Source: Aulosira sp. ZfuVER01
GTDB taxonomy: Bacteria; Cyanobacteriota; Cyanobacteriia; Cyanobacteriales; Nostocaceae
DNA length: 15,053 nucleotides
Assembly: GCA_034530615.2 (NCBI GenBank)
Contig: JAVRCV020000069.1
Span: 1-15,053 of the forward strand
Direction of reading: 5' to 3'
A model generated the notes under the pieces. That model saw only the letters and a program-made list of their open reading frames with translations, was not told the DNA's origin and made no database searches. This document shows, piece by piece, positions 1-15,053 of the stretch (the first letter of the stretch is position 1; the number at the start of each line of letters is the position of its first letter). A program made the translations under genes and the position numbers.

Positions 1-50
1 TTTCCGATTTCCTTCCTGATTATACTCCTCCCGTAGTAACAAAAGAGGGT
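1..50. repeat. Dispersed ~50-bp repeat, copy 1 (inverted relative to 14512-14561; may extend beyond the window start)
   Basis: 41/50 identity to the reverse complement of 14512-14561. Core 12-45 (CTTCCTGATTATACT-N6-GTAGTAACAAAAG) matches 31/34. Confidence 0.85.
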
Positions 51-153
51 TATACCAATTTGAAAAATGATTGCGACAGATGGATCGTCCAAAAGCTTGG
101 TCAATCAATCTTTTACAATCCAAAATCTCAAATCCAAAATCCAAAATGGTATA
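51..153. mobile_element. MITE-like small repeat with TATACCA terminal inverted repeats and internal heptamer repeats
   Basis: Begins TATACCAATTT and ends AAAATGGTATA (11-bp IR, 1 mismatch). AATCCAA/AATCTCA heptamers x4 at 117-144. Left arm (TGCGACAGATGG) is shared in inverted form with 14636-14658. Confidence 0.65.
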
Positions 154-169
154 AAGTCCTGACTACGAA

Positions 170-1990
170 CTACTCAAGTTCTCCGATTAAATTGAGAATT
201 TCTCGGTAATATTGGATGTTACCTTCTTTATAATAAAGGTCGGCGGATTCTTGGAAATCAGCAATTGCTCTTTCATAATTCCCGAGATTGCGGTAAATGT
301 CAGCGCGTACTAGGTAAGCTTCTGTCCAGTGAGGTTGGAGTTGTAAGGCTTGGTTTAAGTCTTGGAGTGCTTCTTCTAATTCGCCTAGCCAAGAACGGCT
401 ACGACCTCGATTAAACCAGTCTTCGGCAAAACTAGGCTCGATGGTGATTGCTTGATTGTAATCTTCTAGTGCGCCTTGATAGTCTTCTATGGCATAGCGG
501 GCGTTACCGCGATCGCTATAAAATGCAGCGGAGTGGGGATTTAGCTGTAATGCTTGAGTATAATCTGCGATCGCACCTTCATAGTCTTCTAAGGCATAGC
601 GCAGAGAACCACGGTTGTAATAAGCTTCTACTAATTCGGGATTCAGGTGTAATGCTTGGTTGTAATCAGCAATTGCTCCTTGTTCATCGCCTATTTGGCG
701 GCGGGCGTTACCTCGGTTGCAGTAAGCTTGAGAAAAGTCGGGTGCAATTTCTATGGCATGGGTGTTATCGGTAATTGCGCCTTGGTAATCTTGCAGTGTT
801 TCGCGGACAATACCTCGACCATAGTAAGCTTCGGCTAAATTGGCATTAAACATCAAAGCCCGATCGTAATCTTTAATTGCGCCTTGGTAGTCTCCTAAAC
901 TCCGACGCGCCGCAGCGCGATCGCAATATCCCTCAGCCATCAGCGGATTGAGTTGCAGGAGTTTTGTACTATCTTTAATTGCTTCTTGATAATCTCCCAT
1001 GCGGCGACGCACATTTGCTCTTAAGCCGTATACTAAATCTAGAGTGGGATTCTCTTGCAATGCGCGATTATAGTCGGCAATTGCACCTTGATAGTCTCCC
1101 AAAGCACTGCGGACAAGACCTCTTTCATAGTATGCTTGCACATCATCAGGATTCAGGGCAATCGCTTGATTAAAGTCTGTCATTGCTTGCTGATACTCTT
1201 CTAAGTGAGCATACACAAGACCGCGATTATAGTAAGCGCCGGCGAAATGGGGGTTTAATTCTAACGCTCGGTTGTAATCTGCAATCGCCCGTTGATAATC
1301 TGTGAGAGCATAACGAGCATTCCCACGGTTATGATAAGCCTCTGCTAAATTGCCATCTAGCTGTAGTGCTTGGTCATGATCGGCTACAGCTTGCAGATAT
1401 TCTCCTAAAATATAGTAAACATTGCCGCGATTGGTGTAGGCGGCGGCAAAATTTGGGTTTAACTGCAAAGCTTGGTTAAAATCTGCGATCGCTTCTTGAT
1501 TATCGCCGCGATCGCAACTAGCTACACCACGATTATGGTAGGCATTGGCAATATCAACATTAATATAAGTAGATAATTGGGGATTAATTTTGACTGCTTG
1601 ATGAAAATTAGCCAGTGCTGTTTCGTAATATCCTAAAGCAAAGTAGGCTTTACCGCGACTATGGTAAGATTCAGCTAGACGGGGATTGATTTTTAATGCT
1701 CGATCGTGGTCAGCGATCGCTCCTTCATAATCTTCTAACCAGAAACGTGCATTTGCCCGATTGCAATAAGCTTCCGCAAAATCAGGATTAATTTCTACAG
1801 CCCGAGCAAAATCTGCGATCGCGCCGTGGTAATCTTTAAGTTCAGCGCTGATAATGATACCCCGGTTATAGTAGGCTTCGGCAAAATCGGGATTAAGTTG
1901 TATTGCTTGAGTGTAAGCTGCGATCGCGCCTTGATAGTCTCCTTGAAAGTTGTTGTTTAATCCCTGAGTTAAAAAATCTTCAGCATTCAT
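170..1990 (-). CDS. Tetratricopeptide-repeat-only protein (~606 aa, roughly 16-17 TPRs)
   Basis: Tandem 34-aa units of the form AEAYYNRG...LGDYQGAIADYNQALQLNP. Start placed at ATG 1990 (MNAEDF), because the 2209 start overlaps the upstream gene and adds a non-TPR extension. Confidence 0.93.
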   Translation of the reverse strand: MNAEDFLTQGLNNNFQGDYQGAIAAYTQAIQLNPDFAEAYYNRGIIISAELKDYHGAIADFARAVEINPDFAEAYCNRANARFWLEDYEGAIADHDRALKINPRLAESYHSRGKAYFALGYYETALANFHQAVKINPQLSTYINVDIANAYHNRGVASCDRGDNQEAIADFNQALQLNPNFAAAYTNRGNVYYILGEYLQAVADHDQALQLDGNLAEAYHNRGNARYALTDYQRAIADYNRALELNPHFAGAYYNRGLVYAHLEEYQQAMTDFNQAIALNPDDVQAYYERGLVRSALGDYQGAIADYNRALQENPTLDLVYGLRANVRRRMGDYQEAIKDSTKLLQLNPLMAEGYCDRAAARRSLGDYQGAIKDYDRALMFNANLAEAYYGRGIVRETLQDYQGAITDNTHAIEIAPDFSQAYCNRGNARRQIGDEQGAIADYNQALHLNPELVEAYYNRGSLRYALEDYEGAIADYTQALQLNPHSAAFYSDRGNARYAIEDYQGALEDYNQAITIEPSFAEDWFNRGRSRSWLGELEEALQDLNQALQLQPHWTEAYLVRADIYRNLGNYERAIADFQESADLYYKEGNIQYYREILNLIGELE

Positions 1991-2139
1991 AAATTTTTTA
2001 TAGAGAGTAAATCTTGCAATAGATTCTAAACGATTGGAAACCACACGCCAGTGGCTACCCAGAAGGTAGGCGTACACAGCGCGTTTACTCTCATCTTTGA
2101 TGCAAGATGTGAATAAAGGCTCATTATAGACGACAGAAA

Positions 2140-2712
2140 TTATTCCACCAAGGTTGTAGTGCTTCGTACAATATGATGCAGTTGCGATCGCTTTGTTACA
2201 CGCCACCAAATTGCTAGAGTTAATTGGCGATGAATTTCTTGGTTACTCCCTAGTTTGTCAATGGGATAACCAAACCAGCACACCTGCAAGCAGCGATGAG
2301 ATTCATAAGCTAACAGCCAGGTTTGTTCGTAGCGTACCAAATCCCTTACCCAAACTGGGTAAATCTCTTGTTGTTGGATGAAGTTAGCAAATGCGATCGC
2401 ATCTTCTCGATGTTTCTTGATACCCTGTGGTAAATGGGTTTCTGCATATCGCCAAAATAAATCGTTGAAGTTTTTACCTAACACCCGTGCAGTCCGTGGT
2501 AGCAGTTCGCGCACTTCTCCCAACCGCTTCCACTTGAGAGAATTAGCAAAAATATTTACCTGCTGTGTAGAGATTTGAGATAACTGCTGTGTCTCCTCAT
2601 CACTCAATCCCATCTCTGCACCAACGATTTGCGGATTAGCAAAGAAACGCTGTCTTAATTCACTATTGGTGTAAAGTTGGGCTAAAACTTGTTGTGTTTG
2701 TGCTAACCCCAT
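2140..2712 (-). CDS. Putative MNIO partner protein (DUF2063/HvfC/BufC-like N-terminal domain)
   Basis: Overlaps the DUF692 stop by 10 bp. Pattern LLPRTARVLG..F..LF..YA...DAIAF..F...WVRDLVRYE resembles DUF692-associated partner proteins. Confidence 0.7.
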   Translation of the reverse strand: MGLAQTQQVLAQLYTNSELRQRFFANPQIVGAEMGLSDEETQQLSQISTQQVNIFANSLKWKRLGEVRELLPRTARVLGKNFNDLFWRYAETHLPQGIKKHREDAIAFANFIQQQEIYPVWVRDLVRYEQTWLLAYESHRCLQVCWFGYPIDKLGSNQEIHRQLTLAIWWRVTKRSQLHHIVRSTTTLVE

Positions 2713-3539
2713 CGATTACGACTCCTACCGATTTGCCTTGCTTGTTGCAGTTCTCCTACCAATTCTGCAAATAATGGCAAGTTTTCATCTCTTTCTAAAA
2801 CAATCCCCTTAACTGAAACCTTGACTAACACTTCATCCATGAGTTGCCAAACCTCGACTGGCGTTGACTGGGAATGGCTATCAATCAATACACCATCATG
2901 CCAATGTCCGCCAACGAAATGCAACTGTACGACACGTTCTATAGGTAATTGTTGGAGAAAGTCCTGCACGTTATAGCCGTGATTCACAGCATTTGTATGT
3001 AGATTTGTCACATCCAACAGCAACCCACAATCAGCACGTTCTACTATTTCCGCCAAAAACTGCGCCTCTGTCATCTCAGCACCGGGAAGCGTCACCATAT
3101 AAGTGATATTTTCCAAAATTAATGGCACATCAATCCAGCGACGCACCTCAGCTATGTTGCGACAAACAACTTCCACAGCTTCCTGGGTATAAGGTAGCGG
3201 CGATAAATGTCCGATATCAACTCCACCAGCTTTAGTAAAGCAGATATGTTCGCTCCACCAAGGCGGGTTAAGCTGTTTAATTAGCGCTGCTAATTTACTT
3301 AGATAATCTCGATCCAAACCTTCAGCACTACCTAATGACAGATTGATAGCATGGGGAATTATCGGGAAATGCGCCGCAAGTAGTTCTAATTCCTGCTGTT
3401 TTTGCCAAGGTGCATCTAGATAGTGTTCGCAAACAATTTCCAGAAAGTCTACTTGCTGACGGTTGAGAAATAAATCGCTTTTAAATGGTTCGCGAAAACC
3501 TAACCCCACACCTAAAGTCGGGAGATGAGATAATATCAT
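2703..3539 (-). CDS. DUF692 family multinuclear non-heme iron oxidative enzyme (MNIO; MbnB/TglH/ChrH/HvfB/BufB family)
   Basis: Family motifs LGVGLGFR, FLEIVCEHY, HAINLSLGS, WWSEHICF, LENITY, LLLDVTNL, QLHFVGG, LIDSHS, VLERD. Start probably ATG 3539 (MILSHLPTLGVG); the ORF is open to 3581. Confidence 0.95.
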   Translation of the reverse strand: MILSHLPTLGVGLGFREPFKSDLFLNRQQVDFLEIVCEHYLDAPWQKQQELELLAAHFPIIPHAINLSLGSAEGLDRDYLSKLAALIKQLNPPWWSEHICFTKAGGVDIGHLSPLPYTQEAVEVVCRNIAEVRRWIDVPLILENITYMVTLPGAEMTEAQFLAEIVERADCGLLLDVTNLHTNAVNHGYNVQDFLQQLPIERVVQLHFVGGHWHDGVLIDSHSQSTPVEVWQLMDEVLVKVSVKGIVLERDENLPLFAELVGELQQARQIGRSRNRWG

Positions 3540-3590
3540 GTCTGGTGCAAGACTTATCATTATAGTTATCAGCTCCTTCATATTTTAACT

Positions 3591-3995
3591 ATGCCAGCAG
3601 AGACTGTTACCCTTCAAATACCAGAGGTTATTTATCAGCGATTGGTAAATACAGCTCGTGCAACCCATCGATCCCTAGAAGATGTAATACTTCGCGTCTT
3701 ACAAATAGGTAGTCCCCCTGCATGGGATGACATACCATCAGAGTTTCAAGCAGAAGTTGCCGCATTGGATAAATTAGATGATGACAGCTTGTGGCAAATA
3801 GCTCGTGCCAAAAAAACAACGAATGACATGGAGCGATACAACCTATTGCTTGAGGGCAATTCTAACGGTACTCTGAGTGAGGAGGAACGTTTAGAATTAA
3901 TGACACTCCGGCATGAAATGGATCTTTTTATGTTGTGCAAAGCCCAGGCAACTGTGTTACTTCGCTGGCGAGGGCATAATGTACAAACTCGGTAA
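3591..3995 (+). CDS. Putative antitoxin / ribbon-helix-helix-like DNA-binding protein
   Basis: N-terminus TVTLQIPEVIYQRLVNTARATHRSLEDVIL has a beta-helix-helix pattern. The protein is acidic and lies 6 bp upstream of an HNH nuclease gene. Confidence 0.7.
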   Translation: MPAETVTLQIPEVIYQRLVNTARATHRSLEDVILRVLQIGSPPAWDDIPSEFQAEVAALDKLDDDSLWQIARAKKTTNDMERYNLLLEGNSNGTLSEEERLELMTLRHEMDLFMLCKAQATVLLRWRGHNVQTR

Positions 3996-4001
3996 TAAAT
4001 A

Positions 4002-4427
4002 GTGTCTGCATATATTCCTGAAAGTTTAAAAAATCGAATTGTTTTAGCAGACTCTTCACGGTGTTGTTATTGCTTAACAACAGAAGCTAACAGTGGTATA
4101 CCAATGACGTATGACCATATTCTACCTGTTTCTAAAAATGGAGAAACAAGTTATGAAAATCTTTGTTTAGCTTGCCGTACATGTAACGAATTTAAAGGGG
4201 ATGCAACCGAAGCTACCGATCCATTATTAGGAGAAACTACGCCTCTTTTTAATCCTCGTACACAAAAATGGTCTGAACATTTTGTATGGAGTCTTGACGG
4301 TACAAGGGTTGAAGGTTTAACTGCTGTTGGTAGAGCCACAGTTGCACGTTTACGAATGAATAATCCAGTTATCATTGTTGCTCGTGGCCGATGGGTTATT
4401 AGCGGTTGGCATCCACCTAACGATTGA
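4002..4427 (+). CDS. HNH endonuclease (McrA-like, putative toxin)
   Basis: RCCYC, DHILP, GETSYENLCLACRTCN motifs plus LFNPRTQKWSEHF tail; GTG start. Confidence 0.92.
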   Translation: MSAYIPESLKNRIVLADSSRCCYCLTTEANSGIPMTYDHILPVSKNGETSYENLCLACRTCNEFKGDATEATDPLLGETTPLFNPRTQKWSEHFVWSLDGTRVEGLTAVGRATVARLRMNNPVIIVARGRWVISGWHPPND

Positions 4428-4469
4428 TAAGTAAGCGCGCATCTAGAAGTGAGGTAGGGTAAAGCTTTT

Positions 4470-5429
4470 CTAGTCACCACCACCGCCACAACCACCGCAA
4501 CCGCCGCAGCCACCACCACCGCAGGAACTGCCACCACTACAAGAACTGCCACTACTACAAGAACTACAACTAGAACTACTACAGGAACCATTTGACGAGC
4601 TACTTTGTCGGCTGCTTGTTCTAGAGTATGTTGGGGGAAAGAATACTTTGTAGTATGAATCGTAGGAAGTACCAGCAAGAGCTTCAACGCCAAATAATGC
4701 TACAACCAAGTTGTATTCAAATGCAGAAGGGATGCTAAATTTGACCTTGGTTTTCGCCTCTGCAAAGGTTTGTTGGAGTTGTTGGAGATAAGCTTCACCT
4801 CGCAAACTTAAGCGCGATCGCTTGCTCACAAACGATAAAATAGCGATAATCGATAAGACTCCCATAACTATCAAAAACCCAACGTTATGGCGTCCTTTTC
4901 CTAAAGCGATAAGCAGCTTATAAATCCCCAGGCTAAAAATAATTGTCGCCGCAATTAAGCCTACTTGAATATTGGATGCTTGCCATTTTTGAGCGTATAG
5001 CAGTTGCTCTTTGTCTAACTCTTCTCCGTAAATTTGACAGTAAGGTTCTACTTTCTCAGCTATTGAATTGATGGATTTTATCGCTGGAGAAGAGGAAAAA
5101 CTAGAAAAAACTTGCTGTTCTAGAGGCTGTAGCTTAGATAGATTGTCATGATTTGGTGCTTGACTAATTAATTGTTCAGCAATTTGTAAATAACCTCTCT
5201 GAATTAAATTCAAAATTGCTACCTTTACCACTTCTACTGTTCCCGAACGCAAGTAAGCAATTTCGTAGGGATCTGGTTCGCTGGGAATTAACGGTAAAGG
5301 TTGGTTTTTTGTGGGATCTTGTATGAGCCACCCACAGACTAACAGTGCCAAGATAATGACGCTACCATACAACAGTAGAAAATCTGGCCCGTACATATCT
5401 GCAATTGGATTATGTAGCAAGGCATCCAT
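4470..5429 (-). CDS. TIGR04222-domain membrane protein with Cys/Ser/Gly-rich C-terminal tail
   Basis: MYGPDFLLLY and DPYEIAYLRSG motifs, three hydrophobic helices, tail ...SCSSSSCSSCSSGSSCSGGSSCGGGGCGGCGGCGGGGD. AGGAG RBS 8 nt upstream of the ATG. Confidence 0.88.
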   Translation of the reverse strand: MDALLHNPIADMYGPDFLLLYGSVIILALLVCGWLIQDPTKNQPLPLIPSEPDPYEIAYLRSGTVEVVKVAILNLIQRGYLQIAEQLISQAPNHDNLSKLQPLEQQVFSSFSSSPAIKSINSIAEKVEPYCQIYGEELDKEQLLYAQKWQASNIQVGLIAATIIFSLGIYKLLIALGKGRHNVGFLIVMGVLSIIAILSFVSKRSRLSLRGEAYLQQLQQTFAEAKTKVKFSIPSAFEYNLVVALFGVEALAGTSYDSYYKVFFPPTYSRTSSRQSSSSNGSCSSSSCSSCSSGSSCSGGSSCGGGGCGGCGGCGGGGD

Positions 5430-5465
5430 AAAGTTTACTCCTGTTCAGCACACCACTTGCTTTTT

Positions 5466-5489
5466 GGGAATTCAAACTTAAGAATTCCC
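5466..5489. promoter_or_regulatory. Perfect 8-8-8 inverted repeat upstream of the TIGR04222 gene (operator or 5'UTR hairpin)
   Basis: GGGAATTC-aaacttaa-GAATTCCC, 36 nt upstream of the ATG at 5429. Confidence 0.4.
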
Positions 5490-5595
5490 CAAATTTCAAG
5501 GAACAATGTATTTCTACACCATGAGTCACAACGTTTACGGAAACGATTTGCATTACAATTGTACTACACGTACCACAATGCGTAAAGCTATACTT

Positions 5596-5614
5596 CAAAT
5601 GACAAATGACAAAT
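5596..5614. repeat. STRR2-type heptamer tandem repeat
   Basis: CAAATGA CAAATGA CAAAT immediately downstream of the channel stop codon. Confidence 0.65.
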
Positions 5615-6393
5615 TAACTAGGTAATTTCGCTCCACACCTTTTACAAAACCGAGCATCTGTATCGTGAAAAGCCAAACCACATCCCGAACAAATTGTTTC
5701 TACTTGGTTAGCAGTTTTCACCAATCGCTTAATTAAATCTCCCACTTGCCAAGGAATTAGTGCAATACCTGTCAAAATCATCAATACTGTTAGCCCACGA
5801 CCTAATTCTGAAGCTGGTGTCACATCACCAAAACCTACAGTTGTCATCGTAACAATTGAAAAATATAAGGCATCCAAAAAAGTTGTGAAAACTTGGGGAT
5901 TGACAGGATGTTCAACTTGATAAATTAAGCCTGAATAAACAAATATAATAGCAAATAATGTAAATAATATCCGAGCAAATATTACCCCATCTTCACTACT
6001 AATAGTACCAAAGAAAAATCTTTGATCGATAAATCTAACTAATCTTAAAATCCGGAACCATCGCAGCAACCGAATAAAGCTGAGATCCACTGCTCCTAGA
6101 AAGAATGGTAAAATTGCTATTAAATCAATAATTGAATATAAACTCAAAAAATACTTAATTTTATTTTCAGCACTCCACAAACGCAATCCATATTCAACTG
6201 CAAAAATTATAAAAATTGCAGTATCTAGGAGATGTAATTGGAAGCGGACAGAATCAGGAATATGATAAGTTTCTGCCACAAAAATTCCTGATGACAACAG
6301 AACTAGTCCAGCAATAGTTAAATTAATCCATTGACCTACTGGTGTATCTAGATCTGTTAAGTAGAATTCAGTTTTCTCTCTGCTAAGTAACAT
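5614..6393 (-). CDS. 6-TM voltage-gated-type potassium channel with C-terminal zinc ribbon
   Basis: S4-like IRLLRWFRILRLVR, selectivity filter TMTTVGFGD, C-terminal CSGC...CKRC. Confidence 0.92.
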   Translation of the reverse strand: MLLSREKTEFYLTDLDTPVGQWINLTIAGLVLLSSGIFVAETYHIPDSVRFQLHLLDTAIFIIFAVEYGLRLWSAENKIKYFLSLYSIIDLIAILPFFLGAVDLSFIRLLRWFRILRLVRFIDQRFFFGTISSEDGVIFARILFTLFAIIFVYSGLIYQVEHPVNPQVFTTFLDALYFSIVTMTTVGFGDVTPASELGRGLTVLMILTGIALIPWQVGDLIKRLVKTANQVETICSGCGLAFHDTDARFCKRCGAKLPS

Positions 6394-6483
6394 AATTAAC
6401 TCTAGCTATTTTTCAGTAGTTCGCAGAAATAATAGGCAAAATAAGCTATTCTTAACAAGTAGCTTGTTTACATTCTAACTATC

Positions 6484-6909
6484 ATGAATCATGAATATTT
6501 TATGCATCTAGCATTGATAGAGGCAAAAAAAGGTGATGCGCCTTATGGTGCAGCGATCGTGAAAGATAACGAAGTAGTTGCCGTAAGTCATAATACTGTA
6601 AGACGAGATAACGATCCATCTGCTCATGCAGAAATCAATGTTATTCGTAGTTTAACAGCTAAACTTAAAAATCCTTCTTTGGAGGGTTATACTATCTACA
6701 CAACTGGCGAACCTTGTCCAATGTGTGCAACTGCTTGTGTTTGGACGGGTATTTCAGAAATTGTATATGGTGCTTCAATTCAAGATTTGATTTCTGTAAA
6801 TCAGTCACAAATTGATATTTCTTGTGAAGAGGTGATTGCTAAGTCATTTAGAAATATCAAAGTGACAAAAGGTATTTTAAGAAACGAATGTTTGGAATTG
6901 TTTAAATAA
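6484..6909 (+). CDS. Nucleoside deaminase (cytidine/deoxycytidylate deaminase family; guanine-deaminase-like)
   Basis: Zn-binding HAE and PCPMC motifs, DAPYGAAIV. Confidence 0.92.
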   Translation: MNHEYFMHLALIEAKKGDAPYGAAIVKDNEVVAVSHNTVRRDNDPSAHAEINVIRSLTAKLKNPSLEGYTIYTTGEPCPMCATACVWTGISEIVYGASIQDLISVNQSQIDISCEEVIAKSFRNIKVTKGILRNECLELFK

Positions 6910-6981
6910 ACTTATTGTATAGATAATAATAATTTACTTTATATTCTTCTCTCCTTCTCTGCGCCTCTGCGTGATAAAAAG

Positions 6982-7644
6982 TTAATCAGACTCCTTTAAA
7001 TATGATAAATATGTATTAGCAAAAATTGCTGCTTGGGTGCGATCGCGCAAATTTAGGCGATTCAACATATTTGTGACATGATTCTTCACCGTACCCTCAG
7101 AAATATAAAGTTGCTGGGCAATTTCTCGGTTACTAGCACCTTGAGCAATTAAGCATAAAACCTCTTTTTCTCTAGGAGTAAGTTCCGCCAAACTCGGTGG
7201 TATTGGTGGTGAAGTGTTTGCTTCTAAACTAGGAAACTGAGTTAAAAGTTTTTTAACTATTCCCGGGCCTAGTTGAGTATAACCTTTATCGACAGCGCGA
7301 ATAGCGAAGGCTAATTCTTCTGATGGCGTATCTTTCAGTAAATAACCCATTGCCCCATTTTGTAGCGCTGCTTTTACATATTCATCATCGTCAAAAGTTG
7401 TTAATACTAAAACTTTAATACTGCTAAAACGCTTTTGAATTTCTCTGGTAGCTGCAACTCCATCCATAATCGGCATTCTAATATCCATTAGCACTACATT
7501 TGGTTGTAATTCGGCAATTAAATCAATTGCCATTTTTCCATTTTCTGCTTCTCCCACTATTTCTAAATCTTCTTCTAGTTCTAATAATGCTCTTAATCCT
7601 TGCCGAATTAAATTTTGGTCATCTACTAACAATACTTTTATCAT
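6982..7644 (-). CDS. NarL/LuxR-family response regulator
   Basis: REC domain (VDD, MDIRMP, LTTF, LLKD) plus LuxR HTH (LTPREKEVL...SNREIA...TVKNHV). ATGA overlap with the kinase stop. Confidence 0.96.
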
Positions 7645-8849
7645 TTATTCAACCTCATTTGGGGAATATCAACTGTAATTTTACAACCAGCGCCAGGAGC
7701 ACTTATAATATTAAATACACCACCAAGCGCTAAAGTGCGATCGCGCATACTTTGCAATCCAAAACCCGTAGTATTTTGTTTAAAATCAAAGCCTTTTCCG
7801 TTATCTTGAATAGTTAAACGTAAACCTCTGGGAGTTTTATCAATTTCTATTCTAACTTCTGTGGCTTCCGCATACTTAGAGATATTTGTCAATGACTCTT
7901 GAATAATCCGATAGATGGCAGTTTTAAATTCATGGGGTAGAGAATTTTCTAAATTGATTATGCAAATTGGTGAAAAGCCTTTTGTATGCTGAAAGTCTTC
8001 TAATAGTCCCTGAATTGCTTGTTCCAAAGATTTCTCTTGCAAGGGATGAGAACGCATAGCAGAAACCGATTGTCGGACATCCTGCAAAGCTTTAGAACCT
8101 AATTCTTTAGCTCTCACTAAAAAACTCTGAGCTTTATTTGGATTAGATTGCGAAAGTTTTAAAGCCGTTTCTAGTTGCAAATTTAATGCTGTTAGCGAAT
8201 GTCCCAAAGAATCATGAATTTCCCTGGCGATGCGATTACGTTCTTCTAGAGTTGCTTGATTTTCAATTCGTAGTGCATATTGACGAAGTTTTTCGTTAGC
8301 GATAGCTAGTTCTTCACGACTTTGGCGTTCAGATAATACTGTATTCATCAACAGTAATACGAAAATTAAACTTAAGCCAAATAATAGAGATAGGCTCAAA
8401 GTAAAGAATTGAAAACGCTCTTGTGCTTGTGGTGATATGGGAAAGTTGTGTAACCGACGCTGTAATGTTAAGAGAAATAAAATAAATGAGATAAGTGTGA
8501 CTACTAAGCGCCCTGGTAAATTAAAAATTAAGCAACTGCGAGTTACCAAAATTATGTAGATAAAAGGAAAAAGTCTTGAAGCTCTGCCACCAACAAAACC
8601 AGTTATTAAAATCAAGCAAACTTCAAGAAATGTATAGATTACCTTAGTTATTTTATTACCAGTGGGTAATCGCAAACCCATTAAGCCAAAAATAATCAAA
8701 CTTGCAGTTGCTACTTCTGGAAACCGACTAGAAAATTTTGGTGAGGGATATGGCAGTACAGCGCTGATAGTAGCGATCGCTAGTAATATCCACTCTAAAT
8801 AAAGTAAAAATCGAAAAGGATGATTGTGAAATTGGATTGGGCGTTTCAT
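7641..8849 (-). CDS. Membrane sensor histidine kinase (HisKA_3)
   Basis: Multi-TM N-terminus, [16 protein letters not shown]-box, [24 protein letters not shown]. Start probably ATG 8849; the ORF is open to 8888. Confidence 0.95.
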
Positions 8850-9052
8850 GTTATTTAAATTGAAATTAACGAAGTTTGATTTATTCACTATTTAAAAATT
8901 TCAGCAATGTACTTAGATTTATTTACGCGCATCTACTTAGCCGCTCGGAATATATTTCTATAAAAATATAAAAACTATCTACTTGGTAAGCAATTTTATA
9001 ACCATAGTTTAATTTACATTAAATGGCTATGATTATTGGCTATCAGCAAATA

Positions 9053-9120
9053 ATGACTAAAGTCATGGGTGTATTCATGACTTTCTCCCCATGTAATCAA
9101 TCGAGATAACTTCTTATGAT
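9053..9120 (+). promoter_or_regulatory. Putative response-regulator operator and -10 box of the spy/cpxP-like gene
   Basis: ATGACT-AA-AGTCAT palindrome (9053-9066), a second ATGACT half-site (9077-9082) and TATGAT at 9115-9120. Confidence 0.65.
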
Positions 9121-9159
9121 GGTGGCATCTACACAAGGAAACAAAACACGAGGTTATCC

Positions 9160-9732
9160 ATGAAAGTTAAAGCATTATCACTAGTAGTTGGAGCGATCGC
9201 CTTAACTTTAGCTGCTACCCCCTTTGCAGTCAAAGCGCAAACAGGCTTTTCTTCTCATCGACTAGTTGCACAAGCCACAAATGGACAAGTTCCCCATAAC
9301 CGTAAAGGGCCTTGGGCAGAATTGGGTTTAACAGATACACAAAAAAGCCAAATTCAAGCAATTCAACGTGATTCCCGCAACCAAATTGAACAACTTATTC
9401 TCCAAAGAGTCAACTTTACTCAAGAACAAAAAGATAAGTTAAATGAATTAAAGGCACAAAGAGGTCAATGGCAGCAAGGTCAACGTCAAACAGGTCAACA
9501 GCGAGGTCAGGGTCATAAGAGAGGTTTTGCTGCACTGAATCTAACTACCGAGCAGAAAAATCAAATTAAGGAAGTAATGCAATCATCGGAAGTTAAGCAA
9601 ATCAGGCAGTCTTCACAACAAAAGATTCAAGCATTACTAACTCCCGAACAACGGACAAAACTTCAAGAACTTCGCCAAAATGCACGTTCTCGCTGGCAAC
9701 AACGCCGTTCTAACCAAGGCACAACACCTTAA
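9160..9732 (+). CDS. Spy/CpxP-family periplasmic chaperone (LTxxQ motif protein)
   Basis: Signal peptide ending VKA; motifs LTDTQ, FTQEQ, LTTEQ, LTPEQ; Gln-rich. Confidence 0.88.
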   Translation: MKVKALSLVVGAIALTLAATPFAVKAQTGFSSHRLVAQATNGQVPHNRKGPWAELGLTDTQKSQIQAIQRDSRNQIEQLILQRVNFTQEQKDKLNELKAQRGQWQQGQRQTGQQRGQGHKRGFAALNLTTEQKNQIKEVMQSSEVKQIRQSSQQKIQALLTPEQRTKLQELRQNARSRWQQRRSNQGTTP

Positions 9733-9744
9733 ATTATCCAACTT

Positions 9745-9764
9745 TTGAGCAGCTTTTGCTCAAT
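9745..9764 (+). terminator. Hairpin just after the spy-like stop codon
   Basis: TTGAGCA-gctttt-TGCTCAA; no clear U-tract. Confidence 0.4.
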
Positions 9765-9930
9765 AAATATAGGCACAATACCACTGTCTACCGCATTTCT
9801 AAGTTAGCTTTAATGCTCGGAGAATTTATTGCCAATGAATTGACTACAAATGTACCCTTAATAAGGGTAAAAAATTAACAGTATTATTCTATTAAATATA
9901 GAGTAATTAAACATTTATAAACCCGAAGCT

Positions 9931-9958
9931 GACTGAACATAATTGTTCAGTCTTTTTT
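9931..9958 (+). terminator. Intrinsic terminator
   Basis: GACTGAACA-taat-TGTTCAGTC followed by T6. Confidence 0.7.
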
Positions 9959-10017
9959 CATAACATAAGTAAGCCAAATTGAAATTGCGTTAATTTACGA
10001 AATTTAAACACAAGAGT

Positions 10018-10539
10018 ATGATGCAATCCTCCACCCCTGCTTCTAATGCTGTTTCTCGCTTGCAACAACTGTTAGATTTTCTTGACCACCAAGCTGAAGC
10101 AAAGGGACTAGCTGTTCCTCAAATTGTCTACATAGAGAAATTGCGACAGCTTCCTGTGGGGACTTTTGGCAGAACTTGGGCTGACTTTTTAGAACAAAAC
10201 AACCTCAAACCTTTCACCACAGGCCCCCGCCGCAAACAACTCCACGATGGTATCCACGTTATCGCAGGTTATGGTGCAGATTTAATTGGGGAAGCGGAAG
10301 TCCAAGCCTTTCTCTTAGGTGCTAAGTTTGGACTAATTAATTTGATGCTGGGGCTAGGGCTGTTACGCATCATCTACAAAAAACAACGACAGCAGCTTAG
10401 TTTGGAAAGACTGTGGCAAGCATACCAACGCGGTTATCACTCCCAGCTAGATCCAGATACTTGGCAACCAGAATTAATTTGGCATTTACCTTTAGCTGAT
10501 GTGCAAGCATTGTTTGGTCTAGCCAACAGTCACAATTAA
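10018..10539 (+). CDS. Coq4-family protein
   Basis: LRQLPVGTFG and HDGIH-x11-E metal-binding motif (HDxxH...E). Confidence 0.8.
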   Translation: MMQSSTPASNAVSRLQQLLDFLDHQAEAKGLAVPQIVYIEKLRQLPVGTFGRTWADFLEQNNLKPFTTGPRRKQLHDGIHVIAGYGADLIGEAEVQAFLLGAKFGLINLMLGLGLLRIIYKKQRQQLSLERLWQAYQRGYHSQLDPDTWQPELIWHLPLADVQALFGLANSHN

Positions 10540-10568
10540 AAAATTCACTAGCCCCTAGCAAAAGATCC

Positions 10569-10599
10569 GAGTTTTGAGTTATGAGTTAATTCAAAACTC
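10569..10599. repeat. Heptamer-derived inverted repeat between the coq4-like gene and sipA
   Basis: GAGTTTT GAGTTAT GAGTTAA followed by TTCAAAACTC; GAGTTTTGA pairs with TCAAAACTC. Confidence 0.5.
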
Positions 10600-10613
10600 T
10601 TTGTTTGATCAAA

Positions 10614-10877
10614 ATGTCTAAAGAATTCCCTATTGGTAGTAAAGTCCGGGTTGTCGCACTACCACCTTACGTCAAAACTGCTGAACCCATGCCCATGCTC
10701 CGTCCTCCTGATGTTATTCACCTTGGCGAAGAAGGTACAGTAATGGATCGTCGTCCCGGTGGATATTGGGGTATTCGCTTTGCAAAGGGAGCTTTTCTGC
10801 TTGATAGCCAATATATCGAAAGTACAGATATCCCTCCCAAATCTGAGTCAGAGCCAAACAGCGACCAAGAATTGTAA
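10614..10877 (+). CDS. sipA: SipA, NblS-interacting regulatory protein (DUF3148)
   Basis: PPYVKTAEPMPMLRPPD...GEEG...RRPGGYWGIRF..GAFLLD signature; ATG at 10614. Confidence 0.88.
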   Translation: MSKEFPIGSKVRVVALPPYVKTAEPMPMLRPPDVIHLGEEGTVMDRRPGGYWGIRFAKGAFLLDSQYIESTDIPPKSESEPNSDQEL

Positions 10878-10908
10878 ACTTGTGTAAAGTTATCATTCTT
10901 ATCTGCAC

Positions 10909-11478
10909 ATGATTTCTCGTCGCACTTTTTTGGGCATATTATTTGCCAGCTGTGTTACTCTTCTCAGTTGGCTAAACTTTACTTCTGTTGCTGATGCGCT
11001 TGGTGGTAAACTCCCAGCGATTAATCAACCTGCGCCAGAGTTCACTTTGCCAACCAATACTGGTAACGGGACAATTTCTCTCTCTCAATTGCGTGGTAAG
11101 TGGGTAGTGCTGTATTTTTACCCGAAAGACTTCACCTCTGGTTGCACAATAGAAGCACGTCGTTTTCAGCAAGACTTGCCCAAATACATCGAAAAGAATA
11201 CGCAAATTATTGGTGTGAGTGCTGATGATGTTGATTCCCATGCTGAATTTTGTGATTCAGAGGGGCTAAAATTCCCGCTTTTAGCAGATACCACTGGCGC
11301 AGTCAGTAAAGCTTACGGTTCTTGGATTGGTTATGTCTCTATGCGTCACAGTTTTGTCATCGATCCAGAGGGCATTTTGCGCGAGACTTTTGTTAAAGTC
11401 AATCCCAATATTCACAGCGCAGAAGTTCTGGCGCGACTGGAGGAGTTACAACGCCAAAATGCAGGAAGTAATGTTTAG
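10909..11478 (+). CDS. bcp: Peroxiredoxin Q/BCP with twin-arginine signal peptide
   Basis: YFYPKDFTSGCTIEA active site; SRRTFLG Tat motif followed by a hydrophobic stretch. Confidence 0.9.
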   Translation: MISRRTFLGILFASCVTLLSWLNFTSVADALGGKLPAINQPAPEFTLPTNTGNGTISLSQLRGKWVVLYFYPKDFTSGCTIEARRFQQDLPKYIEKNTQIIGVSADDVDSHAEFCDSEGLKFPLLADTTGAVSKAYGSWIGYVSMRHSFVIDPEGILRETFVKVNPNIHSAEVLARLEELQRQNAGSNV

Positions 11479-11544
11479 CAAGTAGTTAATAGTGAGTCCA
11501 GCTTGCTACTAAATAAATTCTTGGTAGTAGTTTCAATATACAAG

Positions 11545-11593
11545 GGTGTGTTGTCGCGCAGCGCAACGCACCATCAACAATTCAAGGTGCGTT
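11545..11593. repeat. Small palindromic intergenic repeat between convergent genes
   Basis: GGTGTGTTG...CAACGCACC hairpin (11545-11572), with an alternative partner GGTGCGTT at 11586-11593. Confidence 0.45.
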
Positions 11594-11652
11594 AGCGAGG
11601 AGAAAATGAACCACCGATGAACACCGATAAAATAGAAAATGCGATCGCATTT

Positions 11653-13806
11653 TTAGCGAACTGATTGCGCATCAATGCCGCAGCCATAAGCCATTTTGAC
11701 ATAACGAGGTTTTGTAGAGCGACACCAAGTCCGATTGTTACCAGGGACAGGATTGGTTTTCAGAGATTGAATATTTAATGCTGTATCTGGCAACTTATTT
11801 TGGGGATCTGTTTCTGGCAATAGCAGGTAATTATCTTTGCCGTTTCCATCGACAAATAACCCTAATGTCAGCATCAACTCTCGCAATCCACTAACACCTT
11901 CTAACCGCGATTGCCCATAAGCGGGTTCTAATAAAGATAGATAAGTGTCGTTGCCATGCTTATCCCAGAAAACTCCAATACCGTTGATATCGCCAGTACC
12001 GAAAGTCATTATGCTGCCGTTATACCAATCGTTGCCGGCACTATCTTCAAACCAGCCAATACTCCAGTCGCGACCATTGCCTAAACTTTGCATAATGATA
12101 CCCGTATAGCGATCGCTTCCCCCATCATCTTGATAAACTCCCACACCGAAATGGGGCGAACTTCCCAAGCTATACCATCCTGCATCGTGGTAGTCATCAC
12201 CTGCTTTATCTGCCAAAAATCCTAAACTATACCAGTAAGCTGTACCTTGACCGTAAACCTCACATTCGTAGCGGTCATTCCCTGCGCCATCCACTAGCAT
12301 CCCTACACCTCCAGCCCAACTGTGACCCTCTGTATAGTCTGCACGTCTTCCCAAGCCTGCACCTTGGATAAAATGGACATGCCTTTTGGCTCCAAATGGC
12401 CCGCCATTAGGATACTTGTCTTCTAGTCCAATGTATTTATCGTCACCTACGCTATCTAATAGTAGCCCCACTCCTTTAGTAAAACCATAGCCTTGACCGT
12501 ATCTATAAAGAGAATAGCGATCGCTGCCTTCATTATCAATCAGCAGTCCCGAACCAAAAGTACCGCTACCTTGTAAATTGCTAATGCCTTGATAGGTGTC
12601 TTGTCCTTGTGCGTCGTAAAGAATGCCAGTACCAAAAATACCTATGCCTTGACTAGCGTATTGTGCCTCATAACTGTCATCACCTTGCAAATCCATAAGT
12701 GCTGCGTAGCCGAAGATACCAGCCCCAAAGCTGGGAACTTTTCCTGGTGGGCTAGAGTAGCGGTCGTTGCCAGCTAAATCTAAGGTAACGCTGATACCAT
12801 GAGTAATATTTGTAGTAGCAGCACCGCCAGCGTAACTATCATTACCGTCAACATCTACAATCAATAAGTAATCATCAGGGGAATAAGCATGATCTCCTTT
12901 ACCACTGAGGATAATTCGCCCTTGGGGTGTATCTATGGTGTAGTGGTAATTGCCTTGCAACAAATTAACTGGTATTTGACTGATTTGGCGTTGCATTTCA
13001 CCTGCTGCCGCTGCTGTTAAAATTGCTCCTGTGTTGAGGATTTTAAAATCAACGTTGTCTAACAAAGATTCAATTAACAGTACCTTTTCTGGGCTAGCAT
13101 CTACTTCTTCTGCGGCTTCTTCTTCCACAGTCTTGACTGCATAGTTAAATACTTCGGTGTAGACAGTGTCGGCATCTAGTTGTAGTTTAGCAAGCGATCG
13201 CAACAATCCCACCTGTCTGTAATGCAGTGCATCTGGGACTGTGAATAAAAACTGCGCTACCGCAGCGCGTAACTGTGCGGGCAAAGCTTTGTATTCGCTA
13301 TTTTTAAAACTATCAGCAGGCTGAGTGGTTAATTTACTCAAAGCAACAGCCAAAGCATCATCACCCAGCTTTTCTACTTGCTGTTTGTATTTTGTAAGTA
13401 AATCTCTGTTTAATTGCGGACTCACACCGCCATCGATTCTTTTGTAGGTATTGGCGGCGAGTTGGGCTAAATCTGATTTGGTTGCGAGTAAATCTTGAGT
13501 AATAGTGCGAGTGTAAGGACTGATTTTCCAAGGGTTATCAAAAAATATATCCAGCAACTTGACTCGATATTTATCGCCGCCAGAGAGATCCATGTCTTTC
13601 ATGTCGAAGCGGACATCCTCTGGCGTTAGCTTAGCAGCAGCCAGTGCTTGGCGAAATAGTTCCCCTTGTTCGCTTAAGTATCCTACAGTGGCAGCGTTAA
13701 CCGGAGATAGGGAGAAAACCAAAAGACAAGTCAAGATAAATGGAGCAATTGCCAGAAAAGACTTTGGAAGCGATCGCCCAAATTGTCGCACAATTTTTGG
13801 TATCAC
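11653..13806 (-). CDS. Secreted hypothetical protein with ~12 DxxGxDxY glycine-rich repeats
   Basis: 717-aa ORF with signal-like N-terminus (..LSPVNA), a helical middle region and C-terminal repeats such as LDLAGNDRY, MDLQGDDSY, YDAQGQDTY, IDNEGSDRY. Confidence 0.85.
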   Translation of the reverse strand: MIPKIVRQFGRSLPKSFLAIAPFILTCLLVFSLSPVNAATVGYLSEQGELFRQALAAAKLTPEDVRFDMKDMDLSGGDKYRVKLLDIFFDNPWKISPYTRTITQDLLATKSDLAQLAANTYKRIDGGVSPQLNRDLLTKYKQQVEKLGDDALAVALSKLTTQPADSFKNSEYKALPAQLRAAVAQFLFTVPDALHYRQVGLLRSLAKLQLDADTVYTEVFNYAVKTVEEEAAEEVDASPEKVLLIESLLDNVDFKILNTGAILTAAAAGEMQRQISQIPVNLLQGNYHYTIDTPQGRIILSGKGDHAYSPDDYLLIVDVDGNDSYAGGAATTNITHGISVTLDLAGNDRYSSPPGKVPSFGAGIFGYAALMDLQGDDSYEAQYASQGIGIFGTGILYDAQGQDTYQGISNLQGSGTFGSGLLIDNEGSDRYSLYRYGQGYGFTKGVGLLLDSVGDDKYIGLEDKYPNGGPFGAKRHVHFIQGAGLGRRADYTEGHSWAGGVGMLVDGAGNDRYECEVYGQGTAYWYSLGFLADKAGDDYHDAGWYSLGSSPHFGVGVYQDDGGSDRYTGIIMQSLGNGRDWSIGWFEDSAGNDWYNGSIMTFGTGDINGIGVFWDKHGNDTYLSLLEPAYGQSRLEGVSGLRELMLTLGLFVDGNGKDNYLLLPETDPQNKLPDTALNIQSLKTNPVPGNNRTWCRSTKPRYVKMAYGCGIDAQSVR

Positions 13807-13972
13807 GAAAATTGTTATATATTGCGTAGATATTAAATTTTATACTCTATCACTCCGCAATTTCCCAGTCGATCGACGGTTTTTTGTTCGGCATTATACA
13901 GTCCGACAATGTAAGGCTGATAACCGATAACGCCGATAATTAGTCCATCGACAGTCATGTAACAATATCCCT

Positions 13973-14389
13973 CTTCTAAGAAACCAGATTTGGTGAAGGC
14001 TGAGAAATAAGCCCAAAACCAAAAGCCTGGGCTTTTTTGTGGAGGTTGTTGACCATTCGCTCTCGGTAACGTTGCTCATAATAATCAATACCAGGATCGG
14101 TATAATCTCCTCCAGTTGTCCAAAGTTGGTAAAAAATCCGCGCAATCTTATGGGCAGTAGCGGTAATAGCTTTAGGTGCGCCAAAGCGAGAACGTAAACG
14201 ACGATAAAACGCTCCTAAAGCAGAATTACTTTTTCCGGCGGTTTGTGCTGCCATACGGAAAGCATTTGCAGCGCGGTTTACTACCGGACGAGTTTGAGAA
14301 CTTTTAACTTTGCCACCAGTAATACGACTAAAGACCAACGTCTTTACGCTTCACCAATGCCATCGCCGTCACAACCCAGAACCACGCTT
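13973..14389 (-). mobile_element. Internally deleted IS110 element (inferred ends)
   Basis: Transposase stop is followed by AAG (13975-13973). About 57 nt of GC-richer non-coding sequence upstream of the fragment is preceded by AAG (14389-14387). Boundaries are inferred. Confidence 0.45.
13976..14329 (-). pseudogene. IS110-family transposase, C-terminal fragment only
   Basis: SRITGGKVKSS...NRAANAFRMAA...ALGAFYRRLRSRFGAPKAITATAHKIARIFY is typical of the IS110/IS116/IS902 C-terminal domain. The N-terminal DEDD/RuvC domain is absent. Confidence 0.88.
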
Positions 14390-14511
14390 TTGTACGAACA
14401 AAGTTGCACCATTGAAGGAACGGTCTTAACTGTCAAGACACAATGCGAGTATAAGCTTTTTTGATGCTTTTTATTTCGTTTCTTCCATCCATCGTGGACA
14501 TATCGTCCATC

Positions 14512-14561
14512 AACCGCTTTTGTTACTACGGGGAAAGTATAATCAGGAAGAAAACTAGAAA
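14512..14561. repeat. Dispersed ~50-bp repeat, copy 2 (contains TATAAT at 14538-14543)
   Basis: Reverse complement is 41/50 identical to positions 1-50. Confidence 0.85.
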
Positions 14562-14564
14562 TAG

Positions 14565-14658
14565 TAATACCAATTCAAATAATGTTTACGACGCATAAAT
14601 TATTCATAAGGGCACAAGCAATGTTGTGTCCCTACCCATCTGTCGCATTCTTTTTTTC
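14565..14658. mobile_element. MITE-like element with internal REP-like hairpin, right terminal repeat truncated
   Basis: Starts TAATACCAATTCAAAT, contains AGGGCACAA-gcaatg-TTGTGTCCCTAC, and ends CCATCTGTCGCATTCTTTTTTTC (inverse of the arm at 51-83 but lacking AAATTGGTAT). Confidence 0.6.
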
Positions 14659-14963
14659 TAGAACAGCAAGTTTGCTAGAGAAGTAGTTGCTCAAGAGTAG
14701 CCAAGTAAGCTTTAGGATTGCGACGGAATCGAAGTTGTTTAATGCGATGAAGTCGATGTTGGCGTAAATCAGAGCGTAATTGTTGCCAATTCTAAACACA
14801 AACCTCAGCTAAATCCTGGGCTGTAAAAGAATGAAGTGCTGTCTTCTATGGGTGAAGCTAACTAGACTGTCCTTCGAATCACAAGTGATGAAGGAGCAAC
14901 TTTACGACCAGTACAACGACGTTGATGATGTCGCAAAATAACAAATACCTGTTCAAGGTTAAT
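14658..14963 (-). pseudogene. Decayed transposase C-terminus (cyanobacterial ISNCY-like)
   Basis: Manual translation: NLEQVFVILRHHQRRCTGRKVAPSSLVIRRTV*LASPI / frameshift / TALHSFTAQDLAEVCV*NWQQLRSDLRQHRLHRIKQLRFRRNPKAYLATLEQLLL*. Family recognised from memory. Confidence 0.72.
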
Positions 14964-14964
14964 G

Positions 14965-15007
14965 ACAAAAGCCTCCCTAACGCTGTTTCAGTTAGTGAGG
15001 CTTTTGT
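14965..15007 (-). terminator. rRNA operon intrinsic terminator
   Basis: 17-bp arms ACAAAAGCCTCCCTAAC / GTTAGTGAGGCTTTTGT (1 mismatch), about 11 nt past the 5S 3' end. Confidence 0.85.
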
Positions 15008-15017
15008 GAGATTATAA

Positions 15018-15053
15018 ACCTGGCATCGAGCTATTGTGGCGGGAGGCAACCCT
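15018..15053 (-). rRNA. rrf: 5S rRNA, 3' end (partial; runs off the window)
   Basis: Reverse complement AGGGTTGCCTCCCGCCACAATAGCTCGATGCCAGGT matches the cyanobacterial 5S 3' end and is followed by a strong terminator. Confidence 0.9.

Follow-up and report, generated by a model that had tools for sequence, protein, structure and literature searches.

A Cys/Gly-tailed TIGR04222 membrane protein as candidate substrate of an MNIO enzyme and its partner in the cyanobacterium Aulosira sp. ZfuVER01

In this study, we examine a candidate MNIO (DUF692) system of the cyanobacterium Aulosira sp. ZfuVER01, in which an integral membrane protein of the TIGR04222 family with a Cys-rich tail is the putative substrate of an MNIO enzyme acting with a partner protein. 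The three genes lie in a stretch of 15,053 nucleotides, the whole of which is referred to below as the window (assembly GCA_034530615.2, contig JAVRCV020000069.1, positions 1 to 15,053 of the forward strand). The closest described counterparts are the TIGR04222-MNIO-PME-type 2 clusters of an in-silico survey (PMC12452194, Microb Genom 2025), which proposes subsets of TIGR04222 proteins as MNIO substrates with PME-type 2 partners, so that the statement of an earlier note on this DNA, according to which TIGR04222 tails had only been noted as precursor-like, is outdated. The clusters of the survey resemble the Aulosira locus in gene order (membrane protein, MNIO, partner), in a partner that lacks DUF2063 but has a TglI/NGO1945-like fold, in an MNIO close to the bufferin and oxazolin enzymes, and in a tail rich in Ser, Gly and Cys. 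They differ in that the tail is called periplasmic there, from models of Micromonospora and Pirellula proteins, whereas a cytoplasmic tail is favoured here, and in that an HNH/ribbon-helix-helix (RHH) cassette splits the cluster here. Cyanobacteria are mentioned 0 times in the main text of the survey, and its supplementary file 2 lists cyanobacterial genomes with the TIGR04222-MNIO pattern, including one Nostocales genome with two DUF692 proteins, no DUF2063 protein and one TIGR04222 protein, in which one DUF692 accession and the TIGR04222 accession are consecutive; the clade is thus present in the tables. The pairing of TIGR04222, MNIO and partner is therefore already in print and the locus itself is no surprise. 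What is added here is a strict phyletic pattern of the trio within one cyanobacterial order, an invariant terminal GGCGGCGG, a probable cytoplasmic placement for the tail, its occurrence in genomes that lack an MNIO, and a cassette insertion common to a related strain.

Three characterised systems offer further comparison. In the bufferins (BufA-BufB-BufC, with Buf1/DUF2282 or Buf2 precursors), Cys-rich substrates become copper-binding thiooxazoles according to the survey, and BufB provides the nearest curated enzyme model for the Aulosira MNIO (equivalog NF050167), but the score of 246.7 bits falls below the cut-off of 310. The bufferin systems also differ in that the Aulosira genome holds neither a DUF2282 (PF10048) precursor nor a DUF2063 (PF09836) partner in a search for which a control genome was positive and which did not extend by profile to Buf2 and EGKCG precursors, and in that the candidate substrate here is an integral membrane protein with no Sec signal peptide. 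In the 3-thiaglutamate pathway of TglH-TglI/TglA (structures 8hi7 and 8hci), the iron ligands of TglH are all conserved in the Aulosira MNIO and TglI is the best structural match of its partner; TglHI, however, removes the beta-carbon from one Cys at the C-terminus of a scaffold peptide of 50 residues (PMC9016710), whereas 5-11 Cys are found here in the Gly/Ser tail of a membrane protein. In the methanobactin system MbnA-MbnB-MbnC, too, an MNIO and its partner act on Cys beside Gly or Ser, and the MbnC fold is weakly like that of the partner here (prob 0.6), but MbnB is only distantly similar to the Aulosira enzyme (49.5 bits against a model cut-off of 325), methanobactin is itself a small peptide that is secreted, and neither an exporter nor any further methanobactin gene was found at the locus. 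The oxazolone/thioamide chemistry of methanobactins and oxazolins and the thiooxazole of bufferins are summarised in PMC12452194.

The reading that we favour, with moderate confidence, is that the MNIO and its partner oxidise the tail cysteines of the TIGR04222 membrane protein, the tail being their substrate. In the mechanism envisaged, the TIGR04222 protein would insert with its N-terminus outside, leaving the soluble domain and the tail on the cytoplasmic side; a heterodimer of MNIO and partner, arranged like TglHI, would bind the tail or the conserved ALFG-type segment ahead of it; and the MNIO would then use O2 to oxidise the tail cysteines. The products may be thiooxazole or oxazolone/thioamide rings, by analogy with the nearest characterised relatives BufB, HvfB and MbnB, and the outcome would be a membrane-anchored metal-binding (probably copper) or redox module. 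In this genome, transcription of the MNIO and partner genes would depend either on read-through or on a promoter located at the edge of the cassette. Because the candidate substrate is a membrane protein of 319 residues, the module looks like one of protein modification and not of a released peptide.

The genomic linkage of the three genes is strong. The Aulosira genome (8.03 Mb, 99.99% complete) contains one PF05114 match and one TIGR04222 match, which are about 0.9 kb apart and both in the window. Across a sample of 201 genomes from the same order as the source, MNIO matches occur in 25, and 14 of these, including the Aulosira genome itself, hold an orthologue that is at least 69% identical. 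In all 13 other genomes with the orthologue, a TIGR04222 gene stands directly upstream on the same strand, the two genes overlapping or lying up to 193 bp apart in 12 loci and 477 bp apart in one, whereas 10 of the 11 genomes with only a paralogous MNIO of about 30% identity lack TIGR04222 and the eleventh carries it on another contig. The partner is kept in all 14 genomes and adjoins the MNIO in 12; in the remaining two, both of one genus, it is found at another locus or contig (G156:C1:150156-150713 and G122:C16:33777-34334), which in G156 is about 1.9 Mb from the TIGR04222-MNIO pair. Strong matches to the partner profile are confined to 15 of the 201 genomes, namely the 14 trio genomes and one with an orphan gene, and one more weak remnant brings the number to 16 at E<=1e-5. 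The gene counts in the Aulosira genome and in the sample rule out a chance pairing of TIGR04222 and MNIO, and the co-occurrence and adjacency that had been put forward as a test of the proposal are borne out. When all open reading frames (ORFs) of at least 25 aa from the 14 loci were clustered, only the three trio families proved to be conserved throughout, every other recurring ORF being a shadow frame within the trio genes; no other gene or short ORF, and no peptidase or exporter, is conserved across these loci. This agrees with the earlier remark that no short precursor ORF, peptidase or exporter is visible nearby, since none is conserved in the window or in the 13 related loci, and the separate short precursor that would have spoken against the proposal was not encountered, either in the 14 loci or, for the DUF2282 type, in the genome. 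In one related genome (G051, locus L012, 5874-6479), the partner gene is broken into ORFs of 124 and 65 aa by an in-frame TAG, possibly as a pseudogene or through a sequencing error.

The assignment of the membrane protein is clear: it matches NCBIfam TIGR04222 with 92.4 bits (cut-off 43) over residues 25-252, and 3259 homologues were found in a database search. Its AlphaFold2 (AF2) model (pLDDT 86.3, pTM 0.76) agrees with hydropathy in placing membrane helices at residues 14-35, 147-178 and 184-202, shows a soluble domain of helices and a beta-hairpin at approximately residues 37-146, and leaves the tail from about residue 270 to the end disordered, with pLDDT <50. The tail was described as Cys-rich from the outset, and it is indeed a Ser/Gly/Cys tail, with 8 Cys among the final 60 residues of the protein. 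It is carried by 117 of the 120 best database homologues, the remaining three being short or truncated records, and in 112 of the 116 that are full-length CGGCG falls among the final 16 positions. Among 107 aligned sequences, which share 39-80% identity with the query, G312, G313 and C314 never vary, and each of G309, G310, C311, G315 and G316 is at least 90% conserved; as the mean column identity over the alignment is only 33%, the terminal GGCGGCGG is the best-conserved element of the membrane protein. The segment before the tail, with the consensus LLVALFGVxxLAGTxY, is also well preserved, L241, F246, G247 and Y256 being at least 90% conserved and L251 invariant. Each of the 14 full-length orthologues from the related loci has a Ser/Gly/Cys tail at its end, with 5-11 Cys among the final 60 residues, and closes on a CGGGCGGCGG-type terminus. 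In one genome (G152, locus L008, 4828-7064), two TIGR04222 paralogues stand in tandem upstream of a single MNIO, an arrangement that may be likened to that of several precursor genes served by one enzyme. One of these two paralogues has an additional N-terminal hydrophobic segment, and an additional N-terminal TIGR04222 fragment of 104 aa is present in another genome (G052, locus L013, 4868-6206). Structural comparison yielded little: Foldseek found no match of the TIGR04222 model in the PDB at E<=0.001, and VIA-align wide returned generic three-helix-bundle matches only, with Z<=9.9.

The enzyme is a complete member of its family. The protein of 292 aa matches PF05114 with 301.9 bits (cut-off 25) over profile positions 1-261 of 263, and its similarity to HvfB (equivalog NF003818), like that to BufB, remains below the model cut-off (216.7 bits against 360). 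Sequence matches in the PDB include 3bww (E 9e-41) and TglH (8hci_D, E 4e-32). The TglH iron ligands given in PMC10880893 (H71, H107, E151, D184, N187, H216, D229, H231 and E258) align with H77, H112, E157, D190, N193, H221, D234, H236 and E263 of the Aulosira enzyme, so that the motifs earlier called intact are present in nine out of nine positions. Three candidate starts are available, M1 at 3581, M8 at 3560 and M15 at 3539; similarity to the relatives' proteins sets in around M15, which makes M15 or M8 the probable start in place of M1.

The partner gene overlaps the MNIO stop by 10 bp, an overlap that had been noted correctly. Its product has no match in a local copy of Pfam; 97 homologues were collected, every one with a source name being cyanobacterial, most carry the precomputed label PF26136, and several bear UniRef names of the type 'SCO6045-like C-terminal domain'. 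An AF2 model built from 62 sequences (pLDDT 88.2, pTM 0.79) comprises a helical domain (residues 1-137) and a three-stranded sheet (141-184), and its top Foldseek matches are TglI (8hi7_A, E 1.2e-5, TMq 0.69; 8hci_A) and NGO1945 (3dee, prob 1.00, TMq 0.52), MbnC being a weaker structural match. A weak NHLP-clan match of the N-terminus (28.1 bits, cut-off 40) was discounted, the TglI-like fold being preferred. Standing directly after the MNIO gene, without a DUF2063 signature and with a predicted fold related to TglI and NGO1945, the partner fits the 'PME-type 2' definition of PMC12452194. A complex prediction for the MNIO, the partner, residues 204-319 of the TIGR04222 protein and two Fe gave a score of 0.01 against a mark of 0.32, without control runs, and counts neither for nor against binding.

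We regard it as likely that the tail of this clade lies in the cytoplasm and not, as published, in the periplasm. The Lys and Arg counts of the flanks favour an outward N-terminus with the soluble domain and the C-terminus inside in 103 of 116 homologues (6.78 vs 1.86 per protein), and the fourth hydrophobic segment is modelled as a helix of only 11 residues (236-246). In the long-subtype relatives described below, all 14 have an N-terminal soluble domain of 170-220 aa without a signal peptide, followed in 12 by four transmembrane (TM)-like segments, from which both ends of these proteins would be cytoplasmic. The placement is nevertheless not secure, because the hydropathy of the fourth segment is TM-like in 36 of the 116 homologues (and clearly below that level in 22) and because the survey's prediction for other members of the family is a tail in the periplasm (PMC12452194). 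In further support of a cytoplasmic tail, an extra N-terminal hydrophobic segment, signal-like or TM, precedes the conserved MYGP motif in 11 of 120 homologues, four of which have a basic n-region and a signal-peptide-like A-I-A site. A search of the ESM Atlas with the soluble domain gave no score >=0.9 and DUF2207_C as the sole lead. A link to DUF2207 was considered as a guide to topology and rejected, the homology argument failing on a cyanobacterial DUF2207 protein without a DUF2207_C match; the Aulosira genome holds no DUF2207_C protein above the cut-off. The protein in question (L020:541-2190, 549 aa), which combines a signal peptide and TM segments with a zinc ribbon at the C-terminal end and a long poly-Gly/Ala tail, is a further membrane protein whose tail is Gly-rich and of low complexity, here without Cys.

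The earlier description of a same-strand series of TIGR04222, DUF692 and partner genes stands in that the three genes are real and all on the minus strand; their contiguity does not, as about 930 bp with two genes of the opposite strand separate the first from the second (Table 1). DNA comparison shows that homology with the 13 related loci ends at about 4475 and restarts at about 3532-3536, the break points being 24 bp apart in locus L005 vs about 940 bp in the window. Neither the RHH-like nor the HNH gene has a homologue in the 13 related loci, which, together with the homology break, shows the segment to be a lineage-specific insertion. The HNH protein matches PF01844 with 39.3 bits and has PtuB-like and phage HNH matches as well as three paralogues elsewhere in the genome (45-48% identical), while the 134-aa protein gives weak ribbon-helix-helix/Arc-like matches only. 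The genome holds one copy of the insertion, and no terminal inverted or direct repeats were found at its ends. Contigs from two other studies (X4 and X5) contain it too, which shows that it did not arise in the assembly of a single data set; they are colinear with the window across 2200-4456, where 137 differences were counted (about 94% identity), and across 4500-5598, where identity is about 92%. Tail length also differs among strains, as X4 and X5 have 144 letters where the window has 43 (4456-4500), within a repeated stretch coding for Ser, Gly and Cys. In a Calothrix strain, the numbering of locus tags (MNIO ..18950, TIGR04222 ..18980) hints at two genes between the pair there too. The promoter-like site at the cassette edge agrees with the sigma-70 pattern at 10 of 12 positions and is the best such match in 1900-5800; the six sigma-70-like sites in that interval are not above the number in shuffles (8.3 +/- 2.7), and a promoter for the MNIO at this place is a hint only.

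Table 1. Coordinates of the candidate MNIO system and of the segment that separates its genes
Feature	Position	Strand	Basis or remark
TIGR04222 membrane protein, 319 aa	5429..4470	minus	NCBIfam TIGR04222
MNIO (DUF692) enzyme, 292 aa from first ATG	3581..2703	minus	PF05114
MNIO partner, 190 aa, predicted TglI/NGO1945-like fold ('PME-type 2')	2712..2140	minus	AF2 model + Foldseek
Ser/Gly/Cys tail coding region, residues ~270-319, 8 Cys	4473..4622	minus	
Terminal GGCGGCGG, residues 309-316	4482-4505	minus	
Lineage-specific insertion between TIGR04222 and MNIO genes, ~930 bp	3540..4469		carries plus-strand genes
RHH-like gene, 134 aa	3591-3995	plus	weak matches
HNH endonuclease gene, 141 aa	4002-4427	plus	PF01844
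Promoter-like site TTAAAA, 18 nt, TATAAT	3588..3559	minus	cassette edge, upstream of MNIO start M15

Besides the uncertainty in topology, several findings weigh against the tail as a substrate, foremost among them the occurrence of the same tail where there is no MNIO. TIGR04222 matches are present in 35 of the 201 genomes, and 21 of these lack the orthologous MNIO. A set of 16 unlinked loci was drawn from such genomes, with the addition of second copies in G156 and G122. It includes 14 TIGR04222 proteins of a long subtype (459-620 aa) that end in a Cys/Gly tail with the same CGGCGG terminus, and 15 of 16 searched genomes with unlinked TIGR04222 (those of 15 of the fetched loci plus G136; 96-100% complete) have no PF05114 match at all. 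The tail is thus a family trait with a role that does not need the MNIO; the enzyme would either supplement the short subtype or be linked to it in another way, and it is for this reason that our confidence in the favoured reading goes no further than moderate. The product chemistry, moreover, is inferred from family resemblance only, with the similarity to BufB and HvfB sub-threshold, the operon is interrupted in this window, and full-text literature searches, which did not cover subscription journals, found no experimental test of the TIGR04222-MNIO pairing. Within about 2 kb of the unlinked TIGR04222 genes, no neighbour is conserved beyond genus level. The long subtype has an N-terminal domain of 170-220 aa with an invariant motif of the type VDxVWHLHLxYTxSYWxEFC (L026-L039, e.g. 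L026:1867-3327, P0338) and no Pfam or NCBIfam match, and this His/Cys-motif (WHLHL) domain might act on the tail in cis. The second copies in G156 and G122 (L042 and L043) carry the same tail as the linked ones.

The tails found without any MNIO in 15 of 16 genomes leave some room for two other explanations, each of which we consider unlikely. The MNIO and its partner may modify another, unlinked or unannotated peptide, with the TIGR04222 protein as an accessory (for example a membrane anchor, scaffold, transporter or immunity protein), as could be expected from the characterised MNIO substrates, all of which are short peptides; a third of the TIGR04222 genomes in the survey (PMC12452194) are also without MNIO. 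Against this stand the absence of any conserved short ORF outside the trio in the 14 loci, the lack of a DUF2282 precursor in the genome, the overlapping or adjacent position of TIGR04222 and MNIO in 13 of 13 relatives, which is the usual arrangement of precursor and enzyme, and the tandem TIGR04222 copies upstream of one MNIO. The conservation of the CGGCGG terminus with or without an MNIO, and a disordered tail rich in CxxC-like spacings, would equally suit an unmodified tail serving family-wide as a cytoplasmic thiolate metal-binding or redox arm, to which the MNIO would be linked in another way, for example through metal delivery or through recruitment of the enzyme to the membrane; this, however, leaves the strict co-inheritance of three genes unexplained, and MNIOs are known as peptide-Cys oxidases, here joined by a TglI-like partner of the kind that presents peptide substrates. 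Less probable still is that the module is uncoupled or decaying in this genome, the HNH/RHH insertion having cut the MNIO and partner from the TIGR04222 promoter. A 930-bp cassette of opposite strand does sit exactly at the junction of substrate and enzyme genes, but the three ORFs are intact with all ligand positions kept, the insertion persists with colinear flanks in the contigs of two other studies at about 94% identity, and the promoter-like site at the cassette edge offers a weak further point against decay.

Taken with the favoured reading, in which the MNIO and its partner modify the TIGR04222 tail, these findings allow a wider, tentative reading that we hold to be possible though doubtful as a whole. 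The cytoplasmic tail of a fully inserted protein would be modified by the MNIO-partner pair as the first whole-protein substrate of this enzyme family, with the invariant terminal CGGC as the target, and the product would be a membrane-anchored, cytoplasm-facing heterocycle serving as a copper or redox site, in contrast to bufferins, which are periplasmic; the tail itself would be an older platform independent of the MNIO, on long proteins possibly acted on in cis by the domain with the WHLHL motif. If the tail is indeed modified, integral membrane proteins would join small secreted peptides as targets of MNIO chemistry. Copper is trafficked to the thylakoids in cyanobacteria, and under the same proviso these bacteria would gain an anchored metal-handling element. 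The strain described here is also a natural case of a mobile cassette standing between substrate gene and enzyme gene.

Directly upstream of the TIGR04222 gene, on the same strand, lies a gene for a K+ channel of the voltage-gated type that ends in a zinc ribbon (5614-6393), which recurs in 5 of the 14 loci. Farther along the window, an ORF of 717 aa (11653-13806, minus strand) has no Pfam match at E<=0.001. A NarL-type response regulator and a HisKA_3 histidine kinase (6982-8888, minus strand) are followed by an LTXXQ (CpxP/Spy-like) protein (9160-9732) and then by Coq4-like, CRR42-like and peroxiredoxin (10909-11478) genes, and the region 6982-11478 may represent an envelope or redox stress neighbourhood.

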